Shown here in pieces: positions 1 through 64,000 of a stretch of 64,000 nucleotides of DNA. Positions within the stretch are counted from its first letter, which is position 1. Each line of letters starts with the position of its first letter. The notes beneath the pieces were generated by a model, which did no database searches, had not been told where the DNA came from, and saw only the letters and a program-made list of their open reading frames with translations. The translations under genes were made by a program, and so were the position numbers. Source of the stretch: a virus; IMG/VR virus record IMGVR_UViG_3300049582_000032, positions 37,661 to 101,660 of that record, one strand, 5' to 3'.

Positions 1-822
1 CTCTGTTCTTGTCAATGCTTTCACCTCTTCTTCCCAGCACGGCGTTCCCCTCCACGCGCTCAGCGTCCGCCAAGTGATTCCGTACTTCGTCGGCCCGCCG
101 CTGTCCGCTGGATCATTAACGTACTTGGTCCCCTCCTTCTTTATCAAGGCGGAGATCATTGCGTCTATCGCTTCCGGCCTTTTACCTGGAGGCGGCGGCA
201 AGGCAGGCTCTACGACAACATCAGGAAGCTTTGGAGCAGGCTTCTCAAGCGCCTTTTCCTTAACATCCAATGCCCAGGCAGGGGCTGGCGGCTTACGGGT
301 CGGTGGGGTGGTGACGACCAGGGGGGTTCTGGCTTCAATGATCGCTTTCTCTCTCTCCCTGATGATCTCAAGCGCCTTCTCTCTTTGCTCAGGAGTCAGT
401 CTTGGCTTGCGTATGTCCTCACTGACGATTCGGGAGCCGAACCAGAATGCTATGACGGCCAGGAACAGAGTCCATATCTCTTCCGGAACAAAGTCCATCG
501 AAACCATGTAGCCGATGAAACTGTCCAGATCGAAGAATGGCCAAAAGAACATCCCCACAATCCATAGCGTGATCAATGGACGTGGAAGACGGCTCAACCC
601 ATCGACAAAGCTGTCCCATTTGGTCTTTGGTGGCCTGCCCGCGAACTCTGCTGCATGACTGGCCAGCACCGCCATCTGTTCATCATGAACGTTTGACTCT
701 ATAGCCTGCCGACCTTCCTCCCTTTGTGTCTCGTCTCCTTTCGTAACGCGGATGATCTTGGTCGCAGTATCCCCAACGCCCGTTATCGTCCTTCCAAGGC
801 CGTTGAGAATCCATCCAAGCAA
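1..822 (-). CDS. 3TM holin (GTA-type, PF11351-like) fused to GH108 endolysin; runs off the left edge
   Basis: Hand translation, not in the ORF track. Open frame from TTG 822 (AGGTG RBS) to position 1. Holin motifs WDSFVDGLSRLPRP and WTLFLAVIAFWFGSR, then a Pro-rich linker, then GH108 signature KEGTKYVNDPADSGGPTKYGIT. Confidence 0.85.
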   Translation of the reverse strand, partial: MLGWILNGLGRTITGVGDTATKIIRVTKGDETQREEGRQAIESNVHDEQMAVLASHAAEFAGRPPKTKWDSFVDGLSRLPRPLITLWIVGMFFWPFFDLDSFIGYMVSMDFVPEEIWTLFLAVIAFWFGSRIVSEDIRKPRLTPEQREKALEIIREREKAIIEARTPLVVTTPPTRKPPAPAWALDVKEKALEKPAPKLPDVVVEPALPPPPGKRPEAIDAMISALIKKEGTKYVNDPADSGGPTKYGITWRTLSAWRGTPCWEEEVKALTRTE

Positions 823-930
823 AATACACCTATGGTTTCGATGGCATATGCCGTAATTTTACCCTTTATCGTTGTGCTATGTCCATGCTAGAGTTAAGAG
901 AGGTTCTTATGAGCCCCGAAAAGGAAGGCT

Positions 931-1308
931 ATGATCTCGTCGGAAGTCGTTCTGACCATAAACGCAGCGCTGGTTGTGATCATCCCGGCAGCCGCATATT
1001 TCGTGGTGTCATGGTTGCGGGCCAAGGCGGATGACTTGAAGCGCAGGCAGGACGAGACATACGAAATCGCCGCCAAGAGCCTCAACCAAAGCCGTCAGAA
1101 CTCCGAAGTGCTCAGTAAGAACACGGCTCTCACGGAGAAGATCGCAATCGCAACGAACGGCAATCAGGAGGCGGCGAGAGCCAGCGGATACATAGCCGGG
1201 CAGATAGCGGAAAGACTCTCAAAGAAAGCAATAGAGTGCGACGAGAGCGAACTCGATGAGCTTGAGAAAGCCTTCAAGATCAACCCAAGGAAAGACGAAG
1301 AAAAATGA
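931..1308 (+). CDS. Membrane-anchored hypothetical protein (possible lysis accessory)
   Basis: N-terminal TM helix followed by a coiled-coil-like region; next to the lysis gene; overlaps the next ORF by 4 bp. Confidence 0.55.
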   Translation: MISSEVVLTINAALVVIIPAAAYFVVSWLRAKADDLKRRQDETYEIAAKSLNQSRQNSEVLSKNTALTEKIAIATNGNQEAARASGYIAGQIAERLSKKAIECDESELDELEKAFKINPRKDEEK

Positions 1309-1721
1309 TACAACTAGAGGAAGTCATCCATTGGGTTATCGTTGCTATTGTCACGCTTAACCTTGCATTGCTTTTTCTGATCGCCTTTCTCGCACACACA
1401 AGCGTTCAACGGCACGCTAAGAACGCAAATCTACTCAGAGACAGCATCTCACGGCTCACCCGGCACGAAGAGGAAGAGGCCGGGAACTGGATGGCCTTCA
1501 CGTCAGGCATATCCGATACCTTCCAGCAAATCGTCAAATGGCAGAAAATGACCGCGCGCATGATGTACCGTGACGCTCAGGCCCTCGGCACGCATGATGA
1601 GAACGTTGCGGAACTTCTGGTCAAGGCGAACGAGATTTCGGATCAACTGAAAATCATCGTGGCAAGGAGCCAAGCCATGAAGCCGGAACCCTTGGATGTC
1701 AATTACGACTCGTCCGGGTGA
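1305..1721 (+). CDS. Membrane-anchored hypothetical protein
   Basis: N-terminal TM helix (VIVAIVTLNLALLFLIAFLA); ATGA coupling to the upstream ORF. Confidence 0.55.
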   Translation: MIQLEEVIHWVIVAIVTLNLALLFLIAFLAHTSVQRHAKNANLLRDSISRLTRHEEEEAGNWMAFTSGISDTFQQIVKWQKMTARMMYRDAQALGTHDENVAELLVKANEISDQLKIIVARSQAMKPEPLDVNYDSSG

Positions 1722-4927: not shown

Positions 4928-5968
4928 TTATGCGACAAGCGGGTCGAATGTGACAACCTCACTGTAATCGATGATCTTATCAAGGCCGTAGTCTATCGTG
5001 TGCGAAATTACGTCGTCGTTCGCGCCATCGCCATCCAGATCGGCATACTTGAAGCGCTCCCTGTCCCTGCCATCAAGATAACCGGACTTGGAACCGGGGG
5101 TGAACTTGCCGTCCAAGTTCCCATCGTGGGATGTTAGCCTGTCAGTTACCAGCCCGTCCGCGTTCCTCCAGGTTTCGATCAGATCCCTCTTATAGACATC
5201 CTCAGCAGGCCCTATGTACTCAACAAGCTCCTTGGTATGGCTGCTTGATACCTGAGTCACTGTTGTTCTGGTTACGAAGTGCTGTCCAGCATAGATGATC
5301 TTTGCATTGGCGTCGTCAAACAGCCACGTGTCGGTGCGGTGCCAACCTTCATCAGCCCAAACAAACGGGTCCATCCGATCAATGGATATCATCCGGCCAG
5401 TGGAATCGTAGTCGCAGTCTTCGCCCACCACGAAATCGTACAAGGCGGCATCGTCGATCAGCGTAACGTCTTTCCAGCCCTCTTGCGTGTAGCTCGTATC
5501 CACCCGCCTGTAGCTTGTCGGATCTTCAAAGCCCTCCACATAGCCACGGGTTTCCTCCACGGTCAGGTTCCCGAAGGAATCGAAAGTGTAAGCCGTAACG
5601 CTGCTGTTGTCGGCAACGCCGTTCCCGTCGCCATCGCCAGTATCAACCCGATCCAGGATCATCCGCCCAAAACCATCGTATTGAAGGGACCGGAACTGCT
5701 CGAAGTCCGTCAGGCCATCGCCGTTCGTGTCAAAGGTGACGTGCTCACCCATCAACACTCCAGCCGCATCATAAGCACATGAAGTTGTCTTGAAGTTATC
5801 GGTGACGCCATCAGCCCCGTAGTCAGTGGCCATCGACCTGGAAAGAACACGTCCACTCGCATCGGTCGTAACAGACTCCGAAGAAGAGAAACCGTTGTAA
5901 TCGATCTTCCGTGTGTAGCTCATCGCTGCCTCCAGCGTAAGGGGTTCATTTGGGGTATGAGTTGTCAT
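4928..5968 (-). CDS. Acidic YD-like/Dx[DN]xDG repeat protein
   Basis: YDAAGVL, YDGFGRMI, FDSFGNL and YDSTGRMI alternate with DTNGDGLTD, DGDGNGVAD and DLDGDGAND. Confidence 0.75.
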   Translation of the reverse strand: MTTHTPNEPLTLEAAMSYTRKIDYNGFSSSESVTTDASGRVLSRSMATDYGADGVTDNFKTTSCAYDAAGVLMGEHVTFDTNGDGLTDFEQFRSLQYDGFGRMILDRVDTGDGDGNGVADNSSVTAYTFDSFGNLTVEETRGYVEGFEDPTSYRRVDTSYTQEGWKDVTLIDDAALYDFVVGEDCDYDSTGRMISIDRMDPFVWADEGWHRTDTWLFDDANAKIIYAGQHFVTRTTVTQVSSSHTKELVEYIGPAEDVYKRDLIETWRNADGLVTDRLTSHDGNLDGKFTPGSKSGYLDGRDRERFKYADLDGDGANDDVISHTIDYGLDKIIDYSEVVTFDPLVA

Positions 5969-6039
5969 GATCTCGTTAAAGATCAAGAGGATGCTAGGGC
6001 AAAATCCGCAAGCGCGCTGTGGGAAAACTCACAATCTTC

Positions 6040-6225
6040 TCAGACGCCACCTCTCAGTTTGAGATCCCCAAGCCACTCGGCAAACGCCATTTCCCATTCC
6101 TCTTCGCTCTTCACCAGTGGATATGCGTCCGGGTGCAAGGCAGAGGAAGCTCGCCACTCTTCGTAGAAATCCAGGAAGAGAGAACGCTTGGCCATAACCC
6201 ATTGATCAAGTGTTGATACGGACAT
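6040..6225 (-). CDS. Small hypothetical phage protein
   Basis: GGAG RBS; downstream of the promoter at 6270-6297. Confidence 0.6.
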   Translation of the reverse strand: MSVSTLDQWVMAKRSLFLDFYEEWRASSALHPDAYPLVKSEEEWEMAFAEWLGDLKLRGGV

Positions 6226-6269
6226 TACTTAACTCCATCGTCTCTCTCCAGCATTTCGTTATAGCAGCA

Positions 6270-6297
6270 AGTATATCATAACAAGCTATGTTGTCAA
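6270..6297 (-). promoter_or_regulatory. Putative sigma70 promoter
   Basis: TTGACA-N16-TATACT on the minus strand. Confidence 0.6.
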
Positions 6298-6572
6298 GTC
6301 TTTTTAACGTAGCATGCATGTATACGATCAATCGCGTTAAACTGCTTCCACGAAGGGCTATAATCTTGCAAAAACACCTTGTTCATGATGTCCGTAACCA
6401 TGGCGCGCTGCTTTGCTGGAAGATCAGGAACCTCAAGGATTTTTCTGCATTGATCCCCCAGCTTCACAGCCCACTCGTCCAATGGCTGCATGGAGTCCTC
6501 AACCTTTGACTTTCGCATCCGATCTTGAAGATTGCGCTTCTCCCACTCGAACTTATGTCTTCGCTTTGTCAC
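6294..6572 (-). CDS. Hypothetical protein
   Basis: Tightly packed minus-strand operon. Confidence 0.55.
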   Translation of the reverse strand: MTKRRHKFEWEKRNLQDRMRKSKVEDSMQPLDEWAVKLGDQCRKILEVPDLPAKQRAMVTDIMNKVFLQDYSPSWKQFNAIDRIHACYVKKT

Positions 6573-6574
6573 AG

Positions 6575-6835
6575 TTACCCCTCAAGGACAGTCGCCAATC
6601 CAGATTTTAACTTGTCCTTATCCTCATGCGCGTCCATACGCCCTGCCATTACGAATAGATCAATAGAAAGACTATTCATAACCGAAGCGGCGTTCAGAAC
6701 CGTTCTGTACGAAACTGTCCCGTTCTTAATCCTCTCTTCAACAGGCTCCAGCACGCCATTCTTTAAAGACTCGACAACCAAAAGCAGAATTTTCATATCT
6801 GATTCATTCATTCGCTTTCCTCCTGTTTCTTCCAT
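6575..6835 (-). CDS. Hypothetical protein
   Basis: Operon packing; AGGAGG before an internal ATG (MNESDMK). Confidence 0.55.
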   Translation of the reverse strand: MEETGGKRMNESDMKILLLVVESLKNGVLEPVEERIKNGTVSYRTVLNAASVMNSLSIDLFVMAGRMDAHEDKDKLKSGLATVLEG

Positions 6836-7307: not shown

Positions 7308-7955
7308 CTACCCCTTGAAAGCAACGTCTCTGTTAACGCAAAACCTATTCGCATCTAATTGACTTAAATACCCCTTATCCATCAACTCTCTTGCTGACAG
7401 GCGGAAGCTTCTCATGGAAGTTCCCGTCATGCGCAACAGATACTTCCTTTCGTCATCTGAAATTGTCGCGATATTCCGCCTATTCATGACAGCCCCCATG
7501 AACATAAAGAGAGCGTGCGCCTTGTGCTTCAGATGAATCATTGACTCAAACTTATCCATGTAGATGCTGAATCTCGCTCTCTCGTCACAAGGAAAGACAA
7601 TCATGAATGGACGGTCATGAGGCATGCGACGTACCGCGTGGTTCTTGTTGTACCCGCTGCTGATGGCATCATATTCTGCAATCAGACACTCTTCCATCTC
7701 CAGAATGTCTTCAATGGTGTCTCTCGGCTCAAATACCTTAACCGTATATCCATCCTTGGCATACATGTCGAAATCCCTCTGGAACTCCTTAATTGTATGC
7801 TTCCCACGGCTTAGAAGATGAAAATGCTGGTCAACCCTCTTTGCAACATCTGTCGATGATCCAACATATGACTTCCCATTAGCCCTGCATGTGATGACAT
7901 ACGCGCTCTTGTGATTTCTAGGTATTTGCCTATCTACTGGCTTTATCATAACCAC
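7308..7955 (-). CDS. GIY-YIG nuclease fused to a RepL-like winged-helix domain
   Basis: SAYVIT...SYVGSSTDVAKRVDQH and LEMEECLI...GYN (GIY-YIG); C-terminal ARELMDKGYLSQLDANRFCVNRDVAFKG resembles the RepL wHTH. Confidence 0.7.
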   Translation of the reverse strand: MVMIKPVDRQIPRNHKSAYVITCRANGKSYVGSSTDVAKRVDQHFHLLSRGKHTIKEFQRDFDMYAKDGYTVKVFEPRDTIEDILEMEECLIAEYDAISSGYNKNHAVRRMPHDRPFMIVFPCDERARFSIYMDKFESMIHLKHKAHALFMFMGAVMNRRNIATISDDERKYLLRMTGTSMRSFRLSARELMDKGYLSQLDANRFCVNRDVAFKG

Positions 7956-7986
7956 ACCTCGGATTCCTCCGCTTCCGCGTTAATCT

Positions 7987-8460
7987 TCAGACTTGGCACG
8001 CAATACGATGCAGGCCACTTGTTTCCTTGATCCCTTCTCTCTTCCTAAGAGTCTTGAACCTCTCATTCTGGCGTGAAATCTCAAAGTCTTTATTCTCCTT
8101 GTGACTTACCAAGATCACGCCATCAAGCTTTGCGTACTTCTTCTTGTTGTTCCATGATGACCATGCGATCTCATGGTTAAGAATGTACACGTTCGAGTTT
8201 CCAGACTTCAAAATTCCGATAAAGCCATTATCCTCAAGGACCTTTATGGCCCTGTATATGGTCGCCCTGCTGCACTCGAAATACTCTTGCAGAACGTCAT
8301 ACGAGCATGCGAGTGCATTTGCCTTGTCCATATGCTCCATAAGGAAGGTCAATATGCAGGCTGAAAGCGAGTGCTTCCGCATCAGCCACCTCACTTCAGG
8401 CATGTTCCTTCTATAGAGCTGCACAAAATCCTCATTCTTCCTGTCGTCAAGAACGCTCAC
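7987..8460 (-). CDS. repL: RepL-family plasmid replication/maintenance protein (wHTH)
   Basis: DFVQLY...ILTFLMEHMDKANAL...SRATIYRAIKVLEDNGFI...NVYILNHEIAW, the PF05732-like pattern; GGAGG RBS. Confidence 0.75.
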   Translation of the reverse strand: MSVLDDRKNEDFVQLYRRNMPEVRWLMRKHSLSACILTFLMEHMDKANALACSYDVLQEYFECSRATIYRAIKVLEDNGFIGILKSGNSNVYILNHEIAWSSWNNKKKYAKLDGVILVSHKENKDFEISRQNERFKTLRKREGIKETSGLHRIACQV

Positions 8461-8489
8461 GGCGATACCTCCATCCCTCGGATCTGACG

Positions 8490-8780
8490 CATAGGTATGT
8501 CATCCCTGAAACAAAGTCAATCATTTTCTGCGAGGAATGCGCGCGGATTTGCAACACGTTGTCTCGCTATGTTTCACCCTTGAGGTGAATGTAATGTTTC
8601 ATAGCTGGTGAAACATACGCTCCAAAAATCCCTTTAAAATCAACGGCGATTTTTTGCTCTTCTTACTCTAATACCCTTCCGGTCCCCCTACCAGCGCCGC
8701 ATCCCTATGTCGCTCCGTCCCGTCGCTCGTCGGGCGTAAAAGAATGCTCGCTCCGCTGCGCTTGTCTTGAAGGTAAAGAT
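8490..8780. other. Candidate replication origin
   Basis: Four TGAAACA/TGTTTCA half-sites (8507, 8570, 8595, 8609), including perfect ATGTTTCA-N7-TGAAACAT; then an AT-rich tract (about 8620-8675) and a CGCTC-rich segment; immediately upstream of repL. Confidence 0.5.
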
Positions 8781-8833
8781 CTCCACCAGCCCTCCCTTCC
8801 TCACCCTTCCCCAATCGCCATAGCAAAGAAGAG

Positions 8834-8863
8834 TTGACATCACCATCTGGCATATGGCACACT
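8834..8863 (+). promoter_or_regulatory. Putative sigma70 promoter
   Basis: AAGAGTTGACA-N18-CACACT; same extended -35 context as 13908, 14568 and 22531. Confidence 0.45.
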
Positions 8864-9222
8864 GACGGCCACATGAAATCTGGAGGACACGATGGCCGAC
8901 AAAAAATTAATCGCCAACTTGCTGGGTATGTCGCGGCTGCATTCTTGACATGAAGAAACGAGAGGTTATCCCAATCCCGTATGAGGATTATGATGGAACC
9001 GAGAGCGCCCAGGACATGAGGTCCGGTTTGTTGAATGAACTGAGGGTTTTCGGAGGCGGTCATGCCAGCATACCGGCAACTTTTGGAGGATCGCGCCCGG
9101 AGCCTGTGATAGCCTGTGTCTTTATCTTCAAGACTCCTTCTACTACTCGAAATGCCGGAAGTGGAGTTTGCACAGGCGTCTTTCCAATGAGCGGATCTTC
9201 TGATGGCAGATCTTCATATGAC

Positions 9223-9543
9223 ATGGAACGGAGAGGGTTTCGATATCGAGATGTCTTGGTCAGGGTAAGAGAATCGGACTACCTCGAAATAGAGCGGATC
9301 GCAAGCAATAAGGGCGTATCAAAGGGATATCTTATTCAGAAGGCCATAGAAGGGATTGCGTTGCAAGATCGTCATTTGAACAGAACTACCAAACCGCACG
9401 GCCTGCTTCCTGGGAAGAAAGAGCCGCTACACCGAGAAGTGTTCGGGGCAAACGGAAAACTCCTTCATGGGTTGCTGGCCGTGTGGCTCATTCTGATGCT
9501 GGCAGTCGGTACTGCCTTCATGTTCGGGTGGATACACTTCTAG
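9223..9543 (+). CDS. RHH/CopG-like DNA-binding protein with C-terminal TM helix
   Basis: VLVRVRESDYLEIERIASNKGVSKGYLIQKAIE; hydrophobic C-terminus. Start uncertain (frame is open from 8950). Confidence 0.6.
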   Translation: MERRGFRYRDVLVRVRESDYLEIERIASNKGVSKGYLIQKAIEGIALQDRHLNRTTKPHGLLPGKKEPLHREVFGANGKLLHGLLAVWLILMLAVGTAFMFGWIHF

Positions 9544-9558
9544 GCTCGCTAGGATCGA

Positions 9559-10599
9559 TCAGGATTGACGGGAAGCTAGTGACCCACCCCAGCGGTCGTT
9601 ACGCCCCCATACCGCCCTGCTGGCGCTTCTCATGAGCACCCTGACGATTGGCGGCGGTGGGGGAGCAACAACCTCGTCGAAGATGAACAGGGACTCTCTT
9701 CCGACTTGGCTACGGTACATTCCACCAAAGGTATGACCTACGTTCGGCACGGTCCATATATCATGGCTGCCAACGCCGACCTGCCTGACCAGATGGTTGA
9801 ACCACGCCTGCCCGCGTTCGAACCGATTGAAGCCTTGGAAGTTCGCTGCCGTAGAAGTGTCGAGGTCTGAGTCCTGTTCGATATCGTCCTCTCCAAGGAT
9901 CACATCGATGTCGCGTTCAGCATAATTAGTGATGATCTGGTTTGACCCGACAGCGCTCATGTAGCTGTTGAGGCTGAGCATCCCGTAGGCATAGCTGTTG
10001 TAGGTGCTCGCACTGACACCCGATGGTATGGCGAAATTGGTTGTGCTTCTGCCGACCGGCCTTTCCTGGGTGAGGTACATATACGAGCTTGGGTTTGCGA
10101 TCACGTACTTGATGGCGACACCGGCCCTTGGAGCAATGCCGCCGCCGCTATACCGTGCCGCGACCTGCCCTCCAGCGCTGTGGCCAGTCATGGTTATGCG
10201 TGTGAGATTTGGAAACTTGGCGATGTCCATAAGCTGGGTGACAAGGTAGTCAAGAACCGTGTATGAGGATGTGCTCCCGTTGACCGAAGTGTTCCCCTGC
10301 CGCCATGCGTTGGTCCAATAATGGTGCGTGGCTGTGTCGATGGAATGCGGGGCCATATCCTCATCTTCAAGGAACTGAGGCGAGATGACGGCTACATTCG
10401 TAGTGGATCGTCCTGTGTCCTCGACGCCATCAACGACGGCGTTCATGATGGACTCTGCTGTTTTGGAGGCCCCATGAACAACAATGATGCCATGCGTCAC
10501 AAGCGGATGTGTCCCGCTGATGGAGTGCGTTCTGGCGTATGGAAGCTGTCTTCCATTGACGGTGAAGCGGTATGGGGCAACCTCATCGACAACGGCCAT
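9559..10599 (-). CDS. Alpha/beta hydrolase (Ser-Asp-His)
   Basis: IVVHG oxyanion loop, GHSAGGQ nucleophile elbow, ANPSS, VPNVGH. Confidence 0.85.
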   Translation of the reverse strand: MAVVDEVAPYRFTVNGRQLPYARTHSISGTHPLVTHGIIVVHGASKTAESIMNAVVDGVEDTGRSTTNVAVISPQFLEDEDMAPHSIDTATHHYWTNAWRQGNTSVNGSTSSYTVLDYLVTQLMDIAKFPNLTRITMTGHSAGGQVAARYSGGGIAPRAGVAIKYVIANPSSYMYLTQERPVGRSTTNFAIPSGVSASTYNSYAYGMLSLNSYMSAVGSNQIITNYAERDIDVILGEDDIEQDSDLDTSTAANFQGFNRFERGQAWFNHLVRQVGVGSHDIWTVPNVGHTFGGMYRSQVGRESLFIFDEVVAPPPPPIVRVLMRSASRAVWGRNDRWGGSLASRQS

Positions 10600-13850: not shown

Positions 13851-13885
13851 AGCCCCGGCAGGTGACGCCCACTTGTCGGGGTTTT
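13851..13885 (+). terminator. Intrinsic terminator
   Basis: GCCCCGGCAGGTG/CACTTGTCGGGGT stem followed by a T tract. Confidence 0.75.
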
Positions 13886-13907
13886 CCATGCCTGCAACAA
13901 CAAAGAG

Positions 13908-13936
13908 TTGACCTGCCGCCCATTCTCCGGTATAGT
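13908..13936 (+). promoter_or_regulatory. Putative sigma70 promoter
   Basis: TTGACC-N17-TATAGT. Confidence 0.7.
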
Positions 13937-13966
13937 CGCCTTGGGGGTCGAAAGCTGGAGAAGACA

Positions 13967-16466: not shown

Positions 16467-16732
16467 GTGAGTTCCAGAAGGCCCGAAAGGGAGCGAACAC
16501 CAACAATGCCACTGAAATTAACTACACTGCCACAAAGGAAGGTGCCGTACTCCACACGAAGGATGGTGATACCACAATCCCATTGAAGAAGCTTGGTGAG
16601 ATGTACACGAAGGCTTTGGAGTTGCATAGGGCTCATCTATCACAGGATAGGTCAAAGCTTGTAAAAGGAATTGATTTCAACAACAAAAGAGATTATGATC
16701 CAAATGAAATGAGGTATAACCGTAGTCGGTGA
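16463..16732 (+). CDS. Hypothetical protein
   Basis: ATGA-coupled to the primase; ends RYNRSR. Confidence 0.6.
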   Translation: MSEFQKARKGANTNNATEINYTATKEGAVLHTKDGDTTIPLKKLGEMYTKALELHRAHLSQDRSKLVKGIDFNNKRDYDPNEMRYNRSR

Positions 16733-16733
16733 T

Positions 16734-21768: not shown

Positions 21769-21771
21769 TAG

Positions 21772-54194: not shown

Positions 54195-55526
54195 CTACAG
54201 CTCCGCATCCGCGATCCAGTGGAAGTAATAAAATCCCCCAGGTGAAAAGCTGTTCGTTGCGCTTTCCACAAAGAATGAACTATCCCCTATATGTATTGGA
54301 GATATGTTGACAGGGATATCTGCCAGGAAGTCTGCTTTCCCCACCTGCCCCTGATTGTATGAGTAGAATGTGATAGCTGGCGCTCCCCTCATCTTCACTG
54401 GAAGTCTCACCATGCTATCGTAGAAATATCGATTGGTGTACGCTAGACCGATATTAGGGCCAGGAGACAACAATGCTCCCCTAGCGACATCGAAACCATA
54501 GCTGCGCTGGTAGTATTGAAAGCACAGTTCCCGCTCAAGGTCTGTTGGCCTGTGCTCGAACTGAGTCTTTACTGAAGACAGTTCCAGTTGAGGGTTGGAC
54601 ATCGTGCCGACGCCGAAAGTGACCGTAGCGTTCGCGGACGGAGCCAGTGTGAACTGACCACCGTTGGCCACAGGAACACCGTTGACGGTCGCTGCCGATG
54701 TTCCTGTCCATGACAGGGTGTATATGCCGCCTTGGAGGATGTTTCTCCCCTGCACGATCTGTTGCAGAGATCCGGCTGTGATCGTGATGCCGTAGTTGGC
54801 TATTGTGAACGTGATGCCGGATGATCCAGCTTTCCATCTGTCCCTGATGTACGTTCCTGCTGAATAGGTGCCTGTGAATGCCGAAGCGCCAGTCCCAAGC
54901 CATTGGGAAAGCCAGAAAACAGGGTTGAGAAGAACGTTTCGGAAACCGAACCTTGATGCCGTAAGGATGTTCCCGGATTGTGTTGCGCTGGATTGGGCTG
55001 ATGTTGCGGATGCCGCCGCGCTTGTTGCGCTGTTTGCAGCTTGGGTTGCGGACGAAGCTGCGTTGGTGGCAGCGGTGGAAGCTGTTGCTGCATGGCCAGA
55101 CGTGATTGCTTCGCTTGCGCCGTGAAATGAAGTCAGCCGAAATGCAGTTCCATCATAGATGAACGTGTTGATGGATGACGCTCTGAGATCTCCAGGTTGC
55201 AGGTTTGTTCCGTCCGCTCTCTTGATCGTCGCTTGGCCCCTTCCATTGACGTTCAGCGTGGAGGAGCCTGTATTGGAGATCATGATCATGGCGTTGACCG
55301 TGAGGCCAGCCTGATAGCTCGTTATCGTGTAGCCGACAGTGACGGAATAGGTGTTGGCTGTCCCGGTTGCTACGGAGAACCCTCGCGTTCCTTGATTGAG
55401 TTCGTCAGATGAAGGAAGCTTTCCGAAACCTGACTCTATCGCCGTGAAGATGGCGTTCAGGCGGTTCGCATCTGCTGTCGTAAACCGTGAGAGAGGCGTG
55501 ACGTGATTGAAGTAGCTGTTCGCCAT
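54195..55526 (-). CDS. Tail fibre protein
   Basis: N-terminal anchor (NAIF.AIE.GF.KLP), Ala/Ser/Thr stalk, RN.L.NP.F..SQ...DRWK and T.FEHRP...E..LC..YY...ADAEL. Confidence 0.85.
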   Translation of the reverse strand: MANSYFNHVTPLSRFTTADANRLNAIFTAIESGFGKLPSSDELNQGTRGFSVATGTANTYSVTVGYTITSYQAGLTVNAMIMISNTGSSTLNVNGRGQATIKRADGTNLQPGDLRASSINTFIYDGTAFRLTSFHGASEAITSGHAATASTAATNAASSATQAANSATSAAASATSAQSSATQSGNILTASRFGFRNVLLNPVFWLSQWLGTGASAFTGTYSAGTYIRDRWKAGSSGITFTIANYGITITAGSLQQIVQGRNILQGGIYTLSWTGTSAATVNGVPVANGGQFTLAPSANATVTFGVGTMSNPQLELSSVKTQFEHRPTDLERELCFQYYQRSYGFDVARGALLSPGPNIGLAYTNRYFYDSMVRLPVKMRGAPAITFYSYNQGQVGKADFLADIPVNISPIHIGDSSFFVESATNSFSPGGFYYFHWIADAEL

Positions 55527-55528: not shown

Positions 55529-57601
55529 TTACCTCACGAGCCGTCTGTAGTTGTAGTGCAGGGTAACGCCATGCAGCGTGTGTGGCTCATGATAGTCACT
55601 TACGCTTATGACAGTCAGGCTCATGTTCTGCCCTATCCCGTCGATATAGATGTTGGCGACACCCTCTATCGGGCTTGACCACTTAAACTCGTTCCAGTTT
55701 GCTTCATTCCAAAGGCCACCGCCGCCATACACCAAGAAATCCTTCTCAGATGCTTGCGGGAGGGCCGTATCCCCGTATGAAAATGAGTATGTGATGGAGA
55801 GCTTACTTCTGGAAGCGGAATCGACCTCCAGAACGGCCTTGTGCCAGCGCTTGTCGTTTGTTGGACTGCCGACATGGTTGAACGGTATCCGCAAATATGA
55901 AACAAGTACGTCGCCGTCCGCTGAGGTTCCAGAATCCATCTGATAGACATCGCCGTCCGTGGAACCGAGAAACAGGACTTCTCTTCCCGTGCTATCCTCT
56001 CCACTCACCGTGCATGATGGAACGAAGTCCAGGTTGAACAGCATGGCCTCTGGCTGCTTTCTTCCGAAGTAGATGCTAAGGCCGCTGCCGTCCGACCAGA
56101 AAAGGCGGTACATATCCTTTGAGCGTATTCTCATGCTCCCGACAGCCTTGATGGCACCTTTTGCTTTCGACTCGATGTGAGGCTGCACCATCTGCGTTTT
56201 CGTGCCGAGAGAGAAGTTCCCCCATGACTGTGTTGCGTCAAGAGATCTGACGCCAACATGATCAAGGTAGAGTGGAGTCCCGATGAGTTGAGTTGTCCAT
56301 GGCTGTGCGCCGCTTTCGTTCGTGAGTGTCTTTAGCTGCCAGTTCTCGGAATTTGTGCCGTACAGAATACCGACCTTGTTCTCTCCGAAGATTGCCAATT
56401 CTCCAGTCGCCGTTGGGACGAGATCCGTGATCGGCTCGCCAATGCCGCCAAGCAGAGCGCCCTGTATGATCTCGAAATTCAGAGGCTTGAATATGCTTGA
56501 ATGGATGAAGCGGCCATCGTCGTATGAGAGAAACAGATGATCGGCGTGGGCAGCGATCCGGCTTGGGGTGTCGTTCGGCTCGCCTGTAAGGATTGGCGTC
56601 AGCGTCTGCCCATCGAACTCGAATGCAGGACCAACACCGTTCGCTCCGTATAGATTGAGCGTTCCGGTTGTAGCCATGAAGTTGTTCGTATCGAACGCAT
56701 ACCGACCTCCAGGAGGGAGCGTGATGTCACTCACCGTGCCATTGACGGTTGCGGACCCTGCGGATGTAGAGAGGATCGTTGAATTGTCCTGAAACGTGCC
56801 GACAACGCTTGTGATAATCAGCCTGCCAACAGCGTCGTTTGTGGTCCAATCCCCGTCCTGGAGAATGACTTTCCTAATGACGGCGGTTGCCCCTGGCGTT
56901 GATCCTGTCGTTTGCGTGATTGTCTCGCCTACTTGGAACTCAGATGTCCCGGCGTCAAACGAGATGGACTTGTGAAAAGCGATAGCAGACCAGCCAGAGG
57001 TTGTGGCTTTGTACATAACGCCACTTGTTCCAGCCTCATTGTCACGGAATGCGTACACATCGCCCTTGTAGATGGCGATTCCCCTGATAGGCCCCGAACC
57101 TGCCGGTTGCTGTATGAACCCTCTGAGGTAATTCCTCGCTGCCGCCCCCCACGATTCTTCAACTTCAAGACTAGGAGCTGCGCTTTCCTCAGGCGCTGAT
57201 GTCAGAACGCCTATCTCCACCCCTCCGAAGCTGATCGTTTCTCCTTGCAAGAGGCCGGTGTCTTCCATGATCGGGAAGGTGCCGACAGCATCGCCGTTGC
57301 TTGCTGAACCGGATTGAATGATGGTAGAGGCCAGGACATAGGCGGTCTTGCCGGATGCAGACCCTGTGATGTTGCCGCCGACAGGTGGGATGAACTTGCC
57401 GTCAGAAAACGTTATGACCTTATAGGTGGCTTCAGATGGCTTTGTCCGTCCATCAAATCTCTCCCAGCCTTCGATACGCTTGTATCCTCTTGCCGATGAC
57501 TCATAGTTTCGGCTGGCCCGGACTCTCCCTGGAGGAACAACAATCGATGGCGTAACCATGTCCATGCCGCCAACGAAACCAAAGTATTTCGCCTCTGTCA
57601 A
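55529..57601 (-). CDS. Tail nozzle / DNA stabilisation protein (tail tubular B-like)
   Basis: 690 aa, F.GG.D...P N-terminus, beta-propeller-like; between adaptor and fibre. Confidence 0.75.
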   Translation of the reverse strand: MTEAKYFGFVGGMDMVTPSIVVPPGRVRASRNYESSARGYKRIEGWERFDGRTKPSEATYKVITFSDGKFIPPVGGNITGSASGKTAYVLASTIIQSGSASNGDAVGTFPIMEDTGLLQGETISFGGVEIGVLTSAPEESAAPSLEVEESWGAAARNYLRGFIQQPAGSGPIRGIAIYKGDVYAFRDNEAGTSGVMYKATTSGWSAIAFHKSISFDAGTSEFQVGETITQTTGSTPGATAVIRKVILQDGDWTTNDAVGRLIITSVVGTFQDNSTILSTSAGSATVNGTVSDITLPPGGRYAFDTNNFMATTGTLNLYGANGVGPAFEFDGQTLTPILTGEPNDTPSRIAAHADHLFLSYDDGRFIHSSIFKPLNFEIIQGALLGGIGEPITDLVPTATGELAIFGENKVGILYGTNSENWQLKTLTNESGAQPWTTQLIGTPLYLDHVGVRSLDATQSWGNFSLGTKTQMVQPHIESKAKGAIKAVGSMRIRSKDMYRLFWSDGSGLSIYFGRKQPEAMLFNLDFVPSCTVSGEDSTGREVLFLGSTDGDVYQMDSGTSADGDVLVSYLRIPFNHVGSPTNDKRWHKAVLEVDSASRSKLSITYSFSYGDTALPQASEKDFLVYGGGGLWNEANWNEFKWSSPIEGVANIYIDGIGQNMSLTVISVSDYHEPHTLHGVTLHYNYRRLVR

Positions 57602-58284
57602 AGTAGCCTTCTAAAAACCTGCACGTTTTCCAGTTGGTCCATTTCAAGAAGACTTAACATTTCATTGTAGTTTTGTCTTGCCGTAGCAACAGCAAATCCG
57701 CCTTCGTCATGCTGGCTTAACAGAACGAGAGCGTACCATCCGATGACAGGCCGAAAACGCTGCGGGCATTCCGGGATGTCACCATCGTTCACAAGGATCT
57801 GTGGAGATCGGTAGTATTCTCCACGCACAACGTACACCTTGTCTGGCGTTGGCCCAAACATGAGAAGATTCGCTGGATCGATGGAGAAGCAGGCTGGTCT
57901 GGCCGGTTCCTGCTGCCCGATTTCGTACCTACGCTTGAAGCTGCGGCTGTCGATATGATACAGGAAGCCCTCATCCGACAGGCCGATAGAGTTGTCATAG
58001 ATGGACAGCGTATACGGCAGGGACACCCACCTTGCAAACCTGGTTATCCCCATCTGAATGGACGAGTACCTGTACATTCCAGGCTCGATCTCGGAAGTGA
58101 ACTCGCCGTGCATCCACCTCCACGAAACATGGTGGCTCTGGATCTTGTCCCAGGCCAGATCAACCCATCTTACAATTTTCCCGACCCGCCCTGTTTGTCC
58201 AACAACGGTCTGCGGCAGATCTTCCGCGATTGTTCCGCTTTCCCTTGCGACCATCTGGACGAGTTCAAGAAAATTATAGTCCAT
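57598..58284 (-). CDS. Head-tail adaptor (tail tubular A-like)
   Basis: NFLELVQ...ESG, WV..AW..IQ....WRW, GPTPD..Y...GEY and D.P..P.RF...I. Confidence 0.8.
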   Translation of the reverse strand: MDYNFLELVQMVARESGTIAEDLPQTVVGQTGRVGKIVRWVDLAWDKIQSHHVSWRWMHGEFTSEIEPGMYRYSSIQMGITRFARWVSLPYTLSIYDNSIGLSDEGFLYHIDSRSFKRRYEIGQQEPARPACFSIDPANLLMFGPTPDKVYVVRGEYYRSPQILVNDGDIPECPQRFRPVIGWYALVLLSQHDEGGFAVATARQNYNEMLSLLEMDQLENVQVFRRLL

Positions 58285-59116: not shown

Positions 59117-61960
59117 CTACGGTAAGGCTCCAAGGGTTTGGAACAAAGCAGAGCACCCGTAGTGCTTGCCCTGCTGGTTTGGGTGAATGGCGGCGTTTGC
59201 TTTTGGTGCCATTCTCTTCAACTCATTTACATCAAGAACATAAGAAGAATTGAGAAGTCTTGTTGGACGAAAGGCAGCCGCGCTCATAAGAGGCAGTGCC
59301 GGTTGTGTTGTTGTTCGGATTGGTCCATTGTAGAGCGGATAATCGAACAATTGTGTAGTGTACTGATTTGAAAGCAATTGGGTTGAGGTTAGAACCTTAT
59401 CTCCAATTCCGGTATTGAAGTCATGACCAAAATAGACTGAATCCTTGATGGTGTTGTTGCCGTAACTCTTTCCGTTACCAGTCGTTGAACTCACAAGGAT
59501 CAATGGAGAATGCCAGACTGTATCTATCAGGCTATCGTTTCCGGCCTCGTTCATTTCGTTCAAGCCGCCGAACTGGTTCTGAATGATGGTCGTATTTGTC
59601 ACATTCAGCCGGTTCCCTGGCCTTGAGTAGATCGTGTTGACAACGCGACTTTCTATAAGGCAATTAATGACGTTGTGATCATATCCTATTGGTTGTTCAA
59701 GAGGCTTATCATGCTCATAGAACGTGCTTTGGATATGCGGATAGGCATTGTCCCCAGGAGTAAAAATGCAGCTATCGAAGGTATGGTTTCTCCATCCAGG
59801 CTGATCCTTTGAGGAGTTCTGCACGTGATCGCAATGAGCAATGCCGCCGCTGCTGCTTTTCCTTCCCCACGTCCGGTAGAAGATGCACCGTCTGGCAGTG
59901 AAGTTGTCTTGCGGACCATCGGTTCTCAGGTGGTCAGACATCTGATCCGAAAAGACACAATCCTCAAATATAGTGTTTGGAGAATTTGCATTATAGAAAC
60001 CAATATCTCCAAAGTAGTGTAGTAATGATTTTTTAAATGTTATATTGGAGCAAGCGCCAGATACGCCAATTTGCATACCTCGCCCTTGGTTGTACCATCC
60101 GCTTGTTGGCCTGTACTTATCTGTCGCCCACAGTTTTTTGGCTGTCAGTGGCTTGAATCCGCACAGCTTTACATTCTCGAATGTCAGTCTTGTGCATGAT
60201 ATGCAATCGATCCCATAGTATTTTGCGCCCGCTGTTCCGACATCGCCTTGGTATACCCTGATGCCCTTGAAGACAATGTTATGGATGTTCCTTAGCATAA
60301 GGCCAGCAAACTCAGCGCCACCTGAGCCGGTTGTGAAGAATGTCTCGTCAGGAACCAGCAGTCCGCCTTCGGATGCAAGATACCCTCGATAAGGAAGGGT
60401 GTTGCAACGGATTTCGAGTGCAGCGCCGCCGCGAAAATCCTTGTTCTGCAAGGTGAGTTTGCCTTGCGATTTATAGTCGCCTTGCGTGATTTCGATGACC
60501 TCTCCAGGCTTTGCAGAGTTGAAGGCAGACACAAGCCCGGATACAGAGTTTACCGTGTACGTCGCTGGCCCTCCAGGACCTCCACCACCGCCTGAAGCAG
60601 CCACCGTTGTTGATCTCCTTGGCGAAGTCACAGTACCTACGGTTACATACGATTCCTGCACAGAAGAATTGATGCTTGCGGACGTGTGATATGAACTGAT
60701 CCAGTTTCCAGGTCCGATTGTACCTGCCGTTGAACCCTTGGACTTGATGTCAGATGCTGATGTGAATGACGAGCCGATGGAGTACGTAGGATTGCCACCG
60801 CCATACACGGCAATAGGTGTACCGGCAGAGATTCCGGTAACTTCCTTCTTGGCGAAAGCGACTTCCGATGAAAGCGGGACGTTTACTATCTCAGGAACAT
60901 CGATGTTGTCCGGGGTGCGATCCGCAATCCCCCAAAACACATCGTTCTCTTCCCAAGCCATTCTCCATACAAGCAGGTGGTTTTCGGATACAAACTCATT
61001 ATAAAGCTCGAACACGGCCCTTACGGTTCCGTTGAAGTCCGATCCCGGTATCTTTGTTCCACCGACAATGTACGGATCAGTTGAGTTGAAGAGAGTGCCG
61101 GTCGGTGATCCAGAACCATCGGGAAGCACTGTCTGTACAGCCTGATTGCAGAGCATCAAGGCTTCAGCACGGCCAGCTTTCCACGAACAACCGATGCCGT
61201 TTGCTCCCAACTGCTGGTACTCAAGAAGCAGGCGTCTTTGAAATGAAGTCCCGTTGTCGGACGTATAAAGCTCCAGTCCATCCGATCTCATCCAAAGCTG
61301 AAACGCCCTCTGATTGATTGGCCAGTTCGCCCAGCACAGGATACGCCCTCCATCCGTCGCCGTTGGAAGCGTGATTGACGCATATACGGCCCTGACTTCC
61401 CTTGCGTTTTCCCTCAGCTTGGCCGCTGTTGTCTCGATATAATTGCCTTCCGAGAACTTCATGGCCTGACCAAGCTGGTACGTCTCGTAGGTAGGAGCGC
61501 CTACGACTGTCCATGATGCCGGTGTTGGGGTTATGTCGAGCGGAGCGTTGTTGTCGAAGATCAAGCCAAGCCTATATCCTGCAAGGGCTTCATCCGCCGT
61601 CTGGAAACCGCCACCAGGTTGTGTAGCACCTGATTTACCCCAATAATAGTTGATCTTGTTGACGCCCCCGGTGAACGTCCCGATCAGCAGTATTCTTCCC
61701 CCTGGCGTGCGCTTGTGAGAAAACCTTACACCATTCTCATGCCGGAACCTCAACGCTCCGGTATCCGCCTTTGCTGGCGCACTGATGATATTCGTGACAT
61801 CAACGACAAGAGGATAAAGATTGGCATTTGTTCCTGGCAGAGACGCCGTGGTGAGTGATGCCGTGCTCGTCCATGTCGTAAGGTCATCGTCCCCGACTTC
61901 AGAGATCGGGTTTCTTGCAATCGGCCTATGACGTGCGGACATGGGGAAACGTCTCATCAA
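59117..61960 (-). CDS. Spike/depolymerase: LamG-like domain, Gly linker and right-handed parallel beta-helix
   Basis: AKPGEVIEITQGDY then I.F.N/D repeats (NIVFKGI, LTFENV, NITFKKS, TIFEDC, HTFDSC). Confidence 0.7.
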   Translation of the reverse strand: MMRRFPMSARHRPIARNPISEVGDDDLTTWTSTASLTTASLPGTNANLYPLVVDVTNIISAPAKADTGALRFRHENGVRFSHKRTPGGRILLIGTFTGGVNKINYYWGKSGATQPGGGFQTADEALAGYRLGLIFDNNAPLDITPTPASWTVVGAPTYETYQLGQAMKFSEGNYIETTAAKLRENAREVRAVYASITLPTATDGGRILCWANWPINQRAFQLWMRSDGLELYTSDNGTSFQRRLLLEYQQLGANGIGCSWKAGRAEALMLCNQAVQTVLPDGSGSPTGTLFNSTDPYIVGGTKIPGSDFNGTVRAVFELYNEFVSENHLLVWRMAWEENDVFWGIADRTPDNIDVPEIVNVPLSSEVAFAKKEVTGISAGTPIAVYGGGNPTYSIGSSFTSASDIKSKGSTAGTIGPGNWISSYHTSASINSSVQESYVTVGTVTSPRRSTTVAASGGGGGPGGPATYTVNSVSGLVSAFNSAKPGEVIEITQGDYKSQGKLTLQNKDFRGGAALEIRCNTLPYRGYLASEGGLLVPDETFFTTGSGGAEFAGLMLRNIHNIVFKGIRVYQGDVGTAGAKYYGIDCISCTRLTFENVKLCGFKPLTAKKLWATDKYRPTSGWYNQGRGMQIGVSGACSNITFKKSLLHYFGDIGFYNANSPNTIFEDCVFSDQMSDHLRTDGPQDNFTARRCIFYRTWGRKSSSGGIAHCDHVQNSSKDQPGWRNHTFDSCIFTPGDNAYPHIQSTFYEHDKPLEQPIGYDHNVINCLIESRVVNTIYSRPGNRLNVTNTTIIQNQFGGLNEMNEAGNDSLIDTVWHSPLILVSSTTGNGKSYGNNTIKDSVYFGHDFNTGIGDKVLTSTQLLSNQYTTQLFDYPLYNGPIRTTTQPALPLMSAAAFRPTRLLNSSYVLDVNELKRMAPKANAAIHPNQQGKHYGCSALFQTLGALP

Positions 61961-62622
61961 GATACCCTTACAACAACATAGGACGATGCTTGTTGGAGAA
62001 CGATAGAGTCAAATACGCTAAACTTATTGACACGCATTGTACTTGGCACCAAGGCAGTATAGTACGCCATGCCGTGCCTGATGTGAGTTGATGCATTCAT
62101 TCTTGTAGAATCTGTAAATGAATGAGCAACCGCGTTGTTTATTATAACCCTGTGATTGCTTTCAATGCACTCAAGAGCGACTGTATTGACACCGCTGGCA
62201 GCATACGTATACGGCGTATCCGTCCACCCAGGAAAATTGGTTCCAACGTAGTCCTGTTGAATGCCTATACTCAGAGTTCCGTTGCCGACGCCGTTCGCGT
62301 TCGGCCTGAATAAAGCGTAGTAGCAATTTCTCGGAAAAGGAGTGCTCTGCGAATCTCGCATAAACAAACTGAATGTCTCGTCACCACCCTTCATATCAAC
62401 TTCAATCTGGATGGCTCTATTCATAGAAAGCGTCTGGAGCTTGACGCCTACCCCAGCGCCACTGAATTTTATATCCCCGGAGCCGCCACCTGTCGCAGCA
62501 TTCGCGTTCGGATCAACTCCAAATGCAGCGCTATTCTCTGTGACTGGAGGAATGCGGCCAGAGATCGTAACTCCAGAACCAAGGCCAGTAAAATCATCCT
62601 CTGTGAGTATGGTCCCCGGCAT
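61957..62622 (-). CDS. Lectin/ConA-like structural protein
   Basis: Beta-rich; DDFT N-terminus and S.TDST...G C-terminal pattern. Confidence 0.5.
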   Translation of the reverse strand: MPGTILTEDDFTGLGSGVTISGRIPPVTENSAAFGVDPNANAATGGGSGDIKFSGAGVGVKLQTLSMNRAIQIEVDMKGGDETFSLFMRDSQSTPFPRNCYYALFRPNANGVGNGTLSIGIQQDYVGTNFPGWTDTPYTYAASGVNTVALECIESNHRVIINNAVAHSFTDSTRMNASTHIRHGMAYYTALVPSTMRVNKFSVFDSIVLQQASSYVVVRVS

Positions 62623-63552
62623 CTATCCGGTCCAGGCGTTCGAGTTGAGCGTATAGTGCATGTACGCAGATACCATGGTGACGGTGCCGGCTGTCACGGT
62701 CATGTTTAGCTGCACCTTCTGGCGCGCGACAAACGTATTGGCGGCTGTAGCATTCGCGTCTGCGCTGGCCGAAACCCCATTCGCGGAAGTCCCGGTGCCG
62801 GTGACATCCACGCCTGCAATCCTCAATGTCAAGGTTGCTGCTGGAGAACCAGTGCCAGTGAGAAGAGCGCCTGTAAGCCTCACGATTGTCCCTGACGTTG
62901 GCATGTCAAGGAGTTCATAAACACCTGTTGGGATGGCTGATCCGTTCGATTCCAATGTAATCCTGGACGGAAGAGGAACAGCATGTGTATGGTTTCCGGC
63001 TGCCGCTGCCCCTGATCCGCTGGCAAGCGTTACCACACCGGATGAAGAACTCGTGGCCGCTGGCAGGATGTCTACTGGAATCGTTCCCGTTACAATCTGC
63101 CCAGCATCAATCCCAGGGGAGAAAAGAACGGTATATCCGACAGTACCGGAAGCACGTCTTGCAACGATGTCTACTGTCGTAACACCGTTCGGAGCTTCAT
63201 CGACAAGGGCTATGCCGAAGATGTTCTCAAGGCCAGCGTTCTCAAAAAGATCATCCAGGGAAATCACCCTGCCGCCCGTAGCGTCTTGAATAAATGCAAT
63301 TGAGAGCACTACCGATTGGCCATCAGCGGCCAGCGCCGGGTAGTTGATCGGAGGCCATGTAAAGGCTCCTGAAAGATCTCCAGTAACCGTGTATCGAAGG
63401 ATGGTCCTGTTTGAGAAGTCGATATTGCCGACAGCACCGGAAAGCGTTGTTGCCGTATCGTAGATAACGCCTTTGGCGGCAGCACTCAGTTTCAGAGCCG
63501 CCTCTACCAGCATATCCGATGGCGGGCTTACCGTTGTCTCGATATCAGCCAT
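62623..63552 (-). CDS. Fibre-like structural protein
   Basis: IQDATGGR, ATSSSSGVV.L and AAGNHTH fibre motifs. Confidence 0.6.
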   Translation of the reverse strand: MADIETTVSPPSDMLVEAALKLSAAAKGVIYDTATTLSGAVGNIDFSNRTILRYTVTGDLSGAFTWPPINYPALAADGQSVVLSIAFIQDATGGRVISLDDLFENAGLENIFGIALVDEAPNGVTTVDIVARRASGTVGYTVLFSPGIDAGQIVTGTIPVDILPAATSSSSGVVTLASGSGAAAAGNHTHAVPLPSRITLESNGSAIPTGVYELLDMPTSGTIVRLTGALLTGTGSPAATLTLRIAGVDVTGTGTSANGVSASADANATAANTFVARQKVQLNMTVTAGTVTMVSAYMHYTLNSNAWTG

Positions 63553-63581
63553 GTTGCTGCGCTTTCAAATCCCAGGGCCAG

Positions 63582-64000
63582 CTATTCAGTATAGTACATC
63601 TGGCCAGAGTAATATCGCATAAAATTGCCATTGTAGAGCATCCTGTTGTCGAGCCCCGTAAAAGTGGGCGTATATTCCCCAAGAAGGATCGTGGCGTGGT
63701 CTATCGGGCCTGAGTAATCGTCATCAGGTGCCGTGTACGAGCACCCAAATCCGATGCCGCGCCGAATGTTTGTTGCTTCATCGCCAAAAGTTGCAGTCCC
63801 GGTGACAGCAGCGGTTTCAAGCTTCAGAACTCCATCGATGTAGAGACGCGCTATTCTGTCCCCAGCAGGGTTGAACGCCACAACGAAGTGATGAAAGTTG
63901 CCGTCCAGGATCTCAAGCTCTGTCAGAGCAATATCGTCGTTCTGCGTGGTGCCAGTCCCGAGAGTTACACTGAGCCTCAACGTGTCGGCATCAAGAAAGT
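63582..64000 (-). CDS. LamG-like domain protein (start beyond the right edge)
   Basis: DGNFHHFVVAF...ARLYIDG...IG......Y.G.ID. Confidence 0.7.
   Translation of the reverse strand, partial: FLDADTLRLSVTLGTGTTQNDDIALTELEILDGNFHHFVVAFNPAGDRIARLYIDGVLKLETAAVTGTATFGDEATNIRRGIGFGCSYTAPDDDYSGPIDHATILLGEYTPTFTGLDNRMLYNGNFMRYYSGQMYYTE

Follow-up and report, generated by a model that had tools for sequence, protein, structure and literature searches.

Can a single mobile element spread both as tailed-phage particles and by conjugation? This question was raised by a 64,000-nucleotide stretch of viral DNA (hereafter, the window), which comprises positions 37,661-101,660, that is, the last 64 kb, of the single-contig, 101,660-bp IMG/VR virus record IMGVR_UViG_3300049582_000032. 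In an initial annotation, made from the sequence alone, this DNA had been described as a conjugative phage-plasmid in which podovirus tail genes adjoin a relaxase and a nearly complete P-type type IV secretion system (T4SS); either the element spreads by both routes, or a phage has repurposed a T4SS. These were found to be still the right pair of readings. We regard it as an even call that the record represents an uncultured ~100-kb podovirus-like phage of a diderm rhizosphere bacterium, whose old, inherited Trb-ordered (mating pair formation type T, MPF-T-like) T4SS would move the phage genome by contact, as a second route beside virions. The broader proposal, that a clade of tailed phages spreads its own genome both by virions and by relaxase/T4SS conjugation from infected or carrier cells, is made somewhat more tentatively.

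The T4SS operon and its relaxase

Tightly packed, co-oriented open reading frames of the T4SS side were found to occupy positions 30336-42153 of the window on the plus strand. Pfam and profile matches, predicted folds and gene order bore out the P-type T4SS operon with a relaxase that had been proposed at 30336-41274 (Table 1). The gene order, B11-B2-B3-B4-B5-(K)-B6-B8-B9-B10, is one that we take to equal trbB-C-D-E-J-K-L-F-G-I of the IncP/Ti Trb operon. The coupling protein also matched TraG-D_C and TrwB_AAD_bind, contained the Walker A motif GTKGTGKS and was 22-26% identical to plasmid TraG/VirD4 proteins. For the 851-amino acid (aa) VirB4/TrbE ATPase, no Pfam match and no PDB profile match was found. 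A profile of this protein and 13 close homologs was aligned by hhalign with canonical TrbE/VirB4 over 770 columns (probability 99.9, E 9.8e-37). By phmmer, TrbE/VirB4 proteins were reached at E 1e-13 to 1e-17, and the close homologs, 13 in number and all full length, were 46-65% identical. Within this family, the GKS of Walker A and the DE of Walker B did not vary. The predicted structure of the VirB6/TrbL protein (Atlas) gave TM-scores of 0.67/0.74 to TrbL/VirB6.

The 218-aa product of the first gene was accepted as a predicted minimal HUH relaxase. Its family is tiny: a search of 1.8 billion proteins yielded 11 representative homologs, the nearest at 81%, 52% and 48% identity. Within the family, H98, R100, H138, N148, H150 and H152 were invariant and H63 and Y66 nearly so (Tyr plus H...HxH triad). 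The Pfam Relaxase family, PF03432, was matched weakly (E 5e-4 or weaker) by 3 of 12 family members, all of them distant, and a PDB sequence search with the relaxase profile found nothing. The AlphaFold 2 (AF2) model of the protein (pLDDT 75.5) had MobA (2ns6) as its top Foldseek match. In the fold comparison by VIA, the top 17 matches were all relaxases (Z 10.2-7.8), including MobA (10.2), NES (9.3), TrwC (8.9) and TraI. It may be concluded that the operon is an intact, although very divergent, Trb-type T4SS with coupling protein and relaxase.

Contiguity of the T4SS and virion genes

A sequence nearly identical to the record was present in many rhizosphere metagenome runs, four of which are referred to here as X1 to X4. 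Contigs of two of these runs showed no break at 30.2 or 42.1 kb, the two borders of the T4SS operon. In the probable source run X1, Logan contigs, which come from an independent assembly, spanned both junctions. In run X3, which represents another sample and a strain that is ~1% diverged, contigs were unbroken over window positions 28500-34309 and 39347-46048, with even depth. Because both junctions were bridged in the X1 and X3 contigs, the record is not an assembly chimera. The 19-bp overlap that had been reported between the last tra-side gene and the convergent gene for a 2523-aa protein on the virion side (42135-42153) was real. Searches with Phage_integrase and Resolvase profiles found no integrase or resolvase anywhere on the 101.7-kb contig, and no direct repeats of at least 13 bp were found across the operon borders. 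The earlier observation that the junctions lack an integrase, att repeat or insertion sequence (IS) was thereby borne out. Since neither an integrase or resolvase nor flanking att-like repeats were present, an ICE (integrative and conjugative element) nested in the phage genome, or an integrative prophage, was rejected. The T4SS and virion genes are one element, neither a chimera nor a nested ICE.

The record is linear according to IMG/VR and ~90% complete according to CheckV. Both of its ends truncate minus-strand late genes. Because these genes do not join in frame, the missing part most likely lies within the structural module, between late genes. Megablast of the 30-50 kb region against phages and plasmids gave no match, tRNA genes were not found on scanning, and the number of sites in a promoter and terminator scan was not above that of shuffled sequence. 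It was also observed that 33 bp of the coupling-protein gene (window 31239-31271) were shared by contigs of runs X1, X2 and X4 whose flanks were unlike the record on both sides; these contigs probably belong to a related element in the same soils.

Virion and lysis genes

The capsid, portal and terminase genes, which had been sought in the rest of the contig, were all found there, outside the window, together with tail fibre and spike genes. Genes in the window complete what is predicted to be a full virion gene set (portal, capsid, split terminase, adaptor, nozzle and fibres) along with a holin-endolysin. The podovirus tail module recognised previously was confirmed by the SU10 adaptor family and by the nozzle fold. 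The top 31 Foldseek matches of the nozzle model were all nozzle or tail-hub proteins (Pa223, SU10, T7, P22 and others; E 6e-16 to 1e-8). No match to tail tube, sheath or tape measure proteins was found among the proteins scanned, and PDB sequence searches returned nothing for the nozzle, the scaffold-like protein or the giant 2523-aa protein. The holin-endolysin noted before was present as a single-frame fusion of a holin and a GH108 muramidase, and this frame runs past the window start.

The large terminase (TerL) was found to be divided where its two domains meet. Both domains are present, each encoded by a gene with its own start, and the genes are separated by 22.6 kb. This stretch was not flanked by repeats, and a split intein would have no space in it.

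Age and recurrence of the T4SS module

The guanine-plus-cytosine (GC) content was 0.49 in the T4SS block, 0.49 in the adjacent early region and 0.53 in the virion genes. Tetranucleotide correlations of the T4SS block with other regions (0.84-0.91) covered the range found among those regions themselves, and the correlation with the early region was the highest (0.91). As to selection on the tra module, to which the initial annotation had drawn attention, changes were mostly synonymous: among the strain differences listed for the T4SS genes, 30 of 38 were synonymous and 8 non-synonymous.

VirB4 homologs comprised 13 cluster representatives at 46-65% identity, followed by a gap down to canonical TrbE at ~22%. 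Portal and nozzle homologs comprised about a dozen at 51-75% and, beyond these, a large family whose identity did not exceed 50% and whose long contigs were mostly ~55-65 kb. Thus, the identity ranges of VirB4 (46-65%), nozzle (55-69%) and portal (51-75%) were alike. Homologs of these proteins were found on contigs of the same size in base pairs. Contigs of 95,953, 74,614, 52,720 and 51,238 bp were matched by VirB4, nozzle and portal, contigs of 49,473 and 35,445 bp by VirB4 and portal, and a contig of 87,019 bp by VirB4 and nozzle. It therefore appears that, in five or more other lineages, VirB4 and the virion genes reside together on contigs of 35-96 kb. The recurrence of the tra and virion pairing that had been anticipated for relatives is supported by these same-sized contigs, whereas its synteny is presumptive. 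Judged by these sequence comparisons, the T4SS is a long-standing resident of the phage genome, inherited and kept under purifying selection.

On the 51,238-bp Logan contig, VirB4 was at least 90% identical to that of the element studied here, whereas the portal was 75% and the nozzle 69% identical. This difference suggests mosaicism within the clade, recombination having swapped either the T4SS or the virion module between its phages.

Searches for related loci elsewhere gave little. A tblastn search of phages with VirB4 returned two weak gut-contig matches only. No related locus was found in IMG/VR with VirB4, its alignment and the proteins of two relatives as queries, or in bacterial genomes (one per species), and metagenome contigs yielded a single contig of 2.8 kb.

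The giant gene at the module border

The 2523-aa polyvalent protein is encoded by the last gene of the late operon, which adjoins the T4SS operon. Its residues 1629-2506 matched antirestriction/methylase genes of the DarB-like kind in Parlo, Skulduggery and F116 phages, with identities that reached 27%. In the X3 strain, a 1385-bp stretch of this gene (window 46048-47434, including the ddrB-ParB domain) was replaced with 440 unrelated letters, which looks like a swap of a domain cassette within the polyvalent protein.

Early region and maintenance genes

A block of early genes for replication and recombination spans 15717-25017 on the plus strand. Several genes that had been named in the initial annotation, SNase, YqaJ, ERF, dUTPase and SLT, were all present according to Pfam, and no match to VRR-NUC was found. 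A Toprim_3 domain was all that could be recognised of the supposed TraC-like primase, whose TraC-like identity was not borne out. Nor was the RepL replicon confirmed: the RepL match reached 23 bits and lay beneath a stronger match to the generic HTH_36 family, and there were no iterons nearby. ParA and ParB, sought as AAA_31, CbiA and ParB_N, had no match in the 101.7-kb contig, which, as noted, covers some 90% of the genome. No lysogeny module was recognised, a weak HTH_3 match being the only candidate. Genes for ribonucleotide reductase (RNR), a helicase, ThyX and a sliding clamp were located outside the window. RNR, ThyX, dUTPase, clamp, helicase and recombinases are all carried, as in a self-sufficient phage. 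The phage-plasmid label was not supported, since searches found neither partition genes nor a lysogeny module, and no plasmid initiator was clear. The element may persist as a plasmid prophage or be purely lytic.

The motif GTCTTGAAG, noticed earlier on both sides of the tra operon, occurred in 15 copies between window positions 5787 and 57171, compared with 0.69 expected from shuffling; none of the 15 copies lay inside the 12-kb T4SS operon. The free-standing GIY-YIG and HNH genes probably encode homing endonucleases. Two exact-like copies of a 28-bp unit (window 23297-23352) were located beside a minus-strand gene (23480-23992) with a weak Cro/YdaS-like helix-turn-helix match; past this gene, the genes of the plus-strand block continue, starting with ERF at 24139. 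This repeat pair is possibly an operator or an origin. Outside the window, at record positions 27291-28427 on the minus strand, an IS605-family TnpB (OrfB_IS605 plus Cas12f-like TNB domain) was found; its nearest genomic relatives, in the unrelated taxa Methylobacter and cyanobacteria, were only 59% identical.

Table 1. Features of the element; positions refer to the window unless the whole record is indicated.
Feature	Position	Strand	Evidence and remarks
Minimal HUH relaxase (MobA/VirD2-like; predicted), 218 aa	30336-30992	+	Conserved motifs and fold
Type IV coupling protein (VirD4/TraG)	30967-32607	+	PF02534, E 1e-24, 87.7 bits (cut-off 20.1)
NikA-like ribbon-helix-helix (RHH) protein, candidate relaxosome accessory	32607-32942	+	PF21983, E 2e-6, 28.3 bits (cut-off 27)
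VirB11/TrbB-like ATPase	32893-33840	+	PF00437 T2SSE, E 1.4e-10; Walker A GQQNSGKST
Candidate VirB2/TrbC-like (76 aa) and VirB3/TrbD-like (120 aa) small membrane proteins	33861-34440	+	Two hydrophobic helices each; gene order; no family match
VirB4/TrbE ATPase, deep-branching, 851 aa	34376-36931	+	hhalign to canonical TrbE alignment
Candidate VirB5/TrbJ-like secreted coiled-coil protein and 94-aa protein with a single transmembrane helix (TrbK position)	36774-37843	+	Signal-peptide-like N-terminus; one transmembrane helix; gene order
VirB6/TrbL, 337 aa	37810-38856	+	Language-model features (Atlas), score 0.95, 26/30 matches TrbL
Candidate VirB8/TrbF-like bitopic protein	38878-39495	+	N-terminal transmembrane helix; gene order; no PDB sequence match
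VirB9/TrbG-like lipoprotein, 288 aa	39492-40358	+	Lipobox LSAC; Atlas, 30/30 matches CagX/VirB9/TrbG, score 0.91
VirB10/TrbI	40360-41274	+	PF03743, E 3.1e-9
Two small proteins ending the operon	41287-42153	+	119 aa, RHH/RepB-RCR_reg-like, PF10723, E 1e-4; 150 aa
Lytic transglycosylase SLT, possible VirB1 equivalent, outside the operon	13862-14560	+	PF01464, E 2.9e-25, at 14081-14383
Polyvalent protein, 2523 aa, last gene of late operon	42135-49706	-	ddrB-ParB PF18763, E 2e-37, aa 847-971
Tail-fibre-like protein	54195-55526	-	phrog_4492, E 2e-24
Podovirus tail nozzle, 690 aa	55529-57601	-	AF2 model, pLDDT 89
SU10-type head-to-tail adaptor	57598-58284	-	PF24175, E 7e-13
Beta-helix protein, 946 aa, weak tailspike candidate	59117-61957	-	PF13229, E 1e-4, under cut-off
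Holin (three-transmembrane gene transfer agent (GTA) type) fused to GH108 muramidase, one frame	1-822	-	PF11351, E 3e-12; PF05838, E 5.5e-11
Capsid protein, 332 aa	record 5585-6583		E 1e-9 to solved capsid proteins
Portal	record 7899-10160		phrog_332 and phrog_1216; best annotated relatives are podoviruses, 26-33% identity
Scaffold-like coiled-coil gene	outside window		
Large terminase, nuclease half	record 11251-12060	-	After RNR and a terminator-like hairpin
Large terminase, ATPase half	record 34772-35473	-	Walker A, Walker B, coupling motif; then tightly adjacent ThyX
GIY-YIG endonuclease, free-standing, early region	7308-7955	-	
Winged-helix protein, weakly RepL-like	7987-8460	-	HTH_36, E 1.7e-7; RepL, E 6.3e-5, 23 bits
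Toprim_3 protein	15717-16466	+	Pfam
YqaJ	18226-18921	+	Pfam
HNH endonuclease, free-standing	20926-21768	+	Pfam
dUTPase	22587-23027	+	Pfam
ERF	24139-25017	+	Pfam

Proposed mechanism and alternative explanations

The proposed second route would operate as follows. Within a cell that is infected or a carrier, a putative origin of transfer (oriT) on the phage DNA would be nicked by the relaxase, and the coupling protein would pass the single strand, with the relaxase bound to it, into the T4SS. A neighbouring cell would then receive the phage genome by contact, independently of the phage receptor. The 2523-aa DarB-like/ParB protein is a probable anti-defence protein that may be delivered with the DNA, via the capsid and possibly via the T4SS. 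The DNA transfer itself, the oriT and the timing of expression are predicted here. Of the dual spread proposed at the outset, the single element, the full virion set and the intact T4SS thus stood, and its conjugative half is presumptive.

Several observations weigh against this reading. An oriT was not found, and there was no inverted repeat upstream of the relaxase (29700-30400). The relaxase is tiny, lacks a C-terminal domain and itself has no Pfam Relaxase match. VirB2, B3, B5 and B8 were assigned by size, topology and gene order alone, and a pilin leader, a TraF-type peptidase, TrbH and a separate VirB7 were not found in the operon. As ParA, ParB and a clear plasmid initiator are lacking, a stable donor state is not evident. 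The location of TerL in two distant genes makes virion competence uncertain, and the two ends of the incomplete linear record neither overlap nor join in frame. Finally, co-residence and synteny in the relatives were deduced from identical contig size in base pairs and were not read from the DNA.

It may be supposed instead that the T4SS, although real and conserved, was repurposed for protein delivery to neighbouring cells (anti-defence or polyvalent proteins, toxins), for DNA release, or for pili or adhesion structures of benefit to the phage population, and does not transfer the genome. We consider this unlikely but worth serious attention, since it would agree with the extreme divergence of the system (VirB4 is invisible to Pfam and to PDB profile search), with the minimal relaxase, with the fact that neither an oriT nor plasmid maintenance genes were found, and with the position of the giant DarB-like polyvalent gene next to the operon. 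However, the relaxase, with its catalytic Tyr and His triad, the RHH protein and the coupling protein have been retained beside the channel genes, and the relaxase family is conserved at the identities given above. Such a trio beside channel genes is the signature of DNA-transfer systems, and, to our knowledge, effector or bacteria-killing T4SSs have no relaxases. Because all three components and a complete channel have been kept, DNA transfer is favoured over a pure effector system. That the record is a conjugative plasmid or element with kept or domesticated particle genes (GTA- or defective-prophage-like) and not an infectious phage seems quite improbable. The 22.6 kb between the TerL halves, the GTA-type holin, the incompleteness of the contig and the fact that a DNA polymerase search, confined to family A, gave no match could be explained in this way. 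In contrast, the head, tail, fibre and lysis gene set is complete and intact, and its portal and nozzle family occurs on ordinary phage-sized contigs of 55-65 kb. Furthermore, autonomous phages typically encode RNR, ThyX, dUTPase, a clamp, a helicase, ERF and YqaJ, as this element does, and plasmid partition genes were not found.

The recent arrival of the T4SS, as an ICE or plasmid segment lately inserted in the phage genome and heading for decay, was largely refuted and is very unlikely. The GC content of the T4SS block is slightly under that of the virion genes, and the disparity between VirB4 and the portal and nozzle on the 51,238-bp contig indicates module recombination. Against such a passenger stand borders without integrase, att repeat or IS, and an adjacent early region with the same GC content and the top tetranucleotide correlation with the block. 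In addition, the pairing has been kept in five or more lineages, although their VirB4 proteins are only 46-65% identical, and the listed strain differences are mostly synonymous. That a phage and a plasmid were wrongly joined during assembly might be suspected in a metagenome contig of ~8-10x depth. Nevertheless, an independent Logan assembly of the probable source run and a diverged strain from another sample, the latter at even depth, both crossed the two junctions, and the pairing recurs on other long contigs; the chance of a chimera is accordingly negligible.

Significance

In textbooks and current reviews, virion transfer and conjugation are presented as alternative lifestyles of mobile elements. 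If genome transfer by this T4SS is true, a phage lifestyle does not exclude a conjugative one, and conjugation would circumvent both the host-range limits set by receptors and resistance to adsorption. The lineage provides a concrete system for asking whether both routes operate in one element, how lysis and mating are coordinated and whether host range is widened by conjugation. The example is of the proteobacterial type (Trb, diderm) with a relaxase. So divergent a T4SS can go unnoticed in profile searches of some kinds, neither VirB4 nor the relaxase having matched Pfam, and such hybrids may be under-counted.

Comparison with known systems

In full-text literature searches, no publication was found that describes a phage clade with a T4SS of its own, and, according to a 2025 review, spread of one element both as particles and by cell contact has not been found.

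The system most similar to the operon is the Trb-type (MPF-T) T4SS of IncP/Ti plasmids and Tn4371-family ICEs, which has the same gene order, with the coupling protein and relaxase ahead. The likeness extends to full-length VirB4 homology and to the TrbI, T2SSE and T4CP domains. However, the operon studied here has a tailed-phage setting and is 20-26% identical to plasmid homologs. Its 218-aa relaxase is without a C-terminal domain, and the TraF-like peptidase, TrbH/VirB7, pilin leader, integrase and plasmid partition genes were not found.

The virion genes are similar to those of podoviruses with SU10/T7 tails (SU10, Pseudoalteromonas phage vB_Pun_Y3, Sinorhizobium phage phiM6, HMO-2011 and CRP roseophages), with which they share a portal at 26-33% identity, the SU10 adaptor and the nozzle fold. 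Among the matches listed, phage records with related portals are 33-68 kb long, whereas those of the clade described here are ~95-102 kb. The VirB4 search of phages gave no match in these podoviruses, in which no direct check for a T4SS was made. Polyvalent proteins of phages and conjugative elements are said to have been treated by Iyer et al. in 2017. With these proteins and with P1 DarB, the giant protein shares the ddrB-ParB domain and a DarB-like methylase/antirestriction region. It differs in that its gene encodes 2523 aa, is located exactly between the T4SS and the late operon and contains one strain-variable cassette.

Phage and conjugation genes have been seen travelling together in other arrangements. 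According to the two reports, phages and ICEs are joined in tandems by site-specific accretion with phage-encoded integrases (Sci Adv 2026, PMC13651849), and conjugative megaplasmids of >300 kb have been proposed as prophage vehicles (PMC12934698). In contrast to both of these arrangements, a single ~100-kb phage genome was found here, without integrase or att repeats. Known phage-plasmids (P1, N15 and SSU5 groups) have replication and partition genes and no conjugation system (Pfeifer et al. 2021, PMC7969092), whereas p1002-1, a hybrid 'conjugative phage-plasmid', was ascribed to fusion of a conjugative plasmid and a phage-plasmid (preprint 10.1101/2025.03.14.643293). Like these elements, the record combines phage functions and plasmid-typical functions on one replicon. 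In contrast to them, maintenance genes were not found, and the T4SS appears to be ancient, divergent and conserved across a phage clade.

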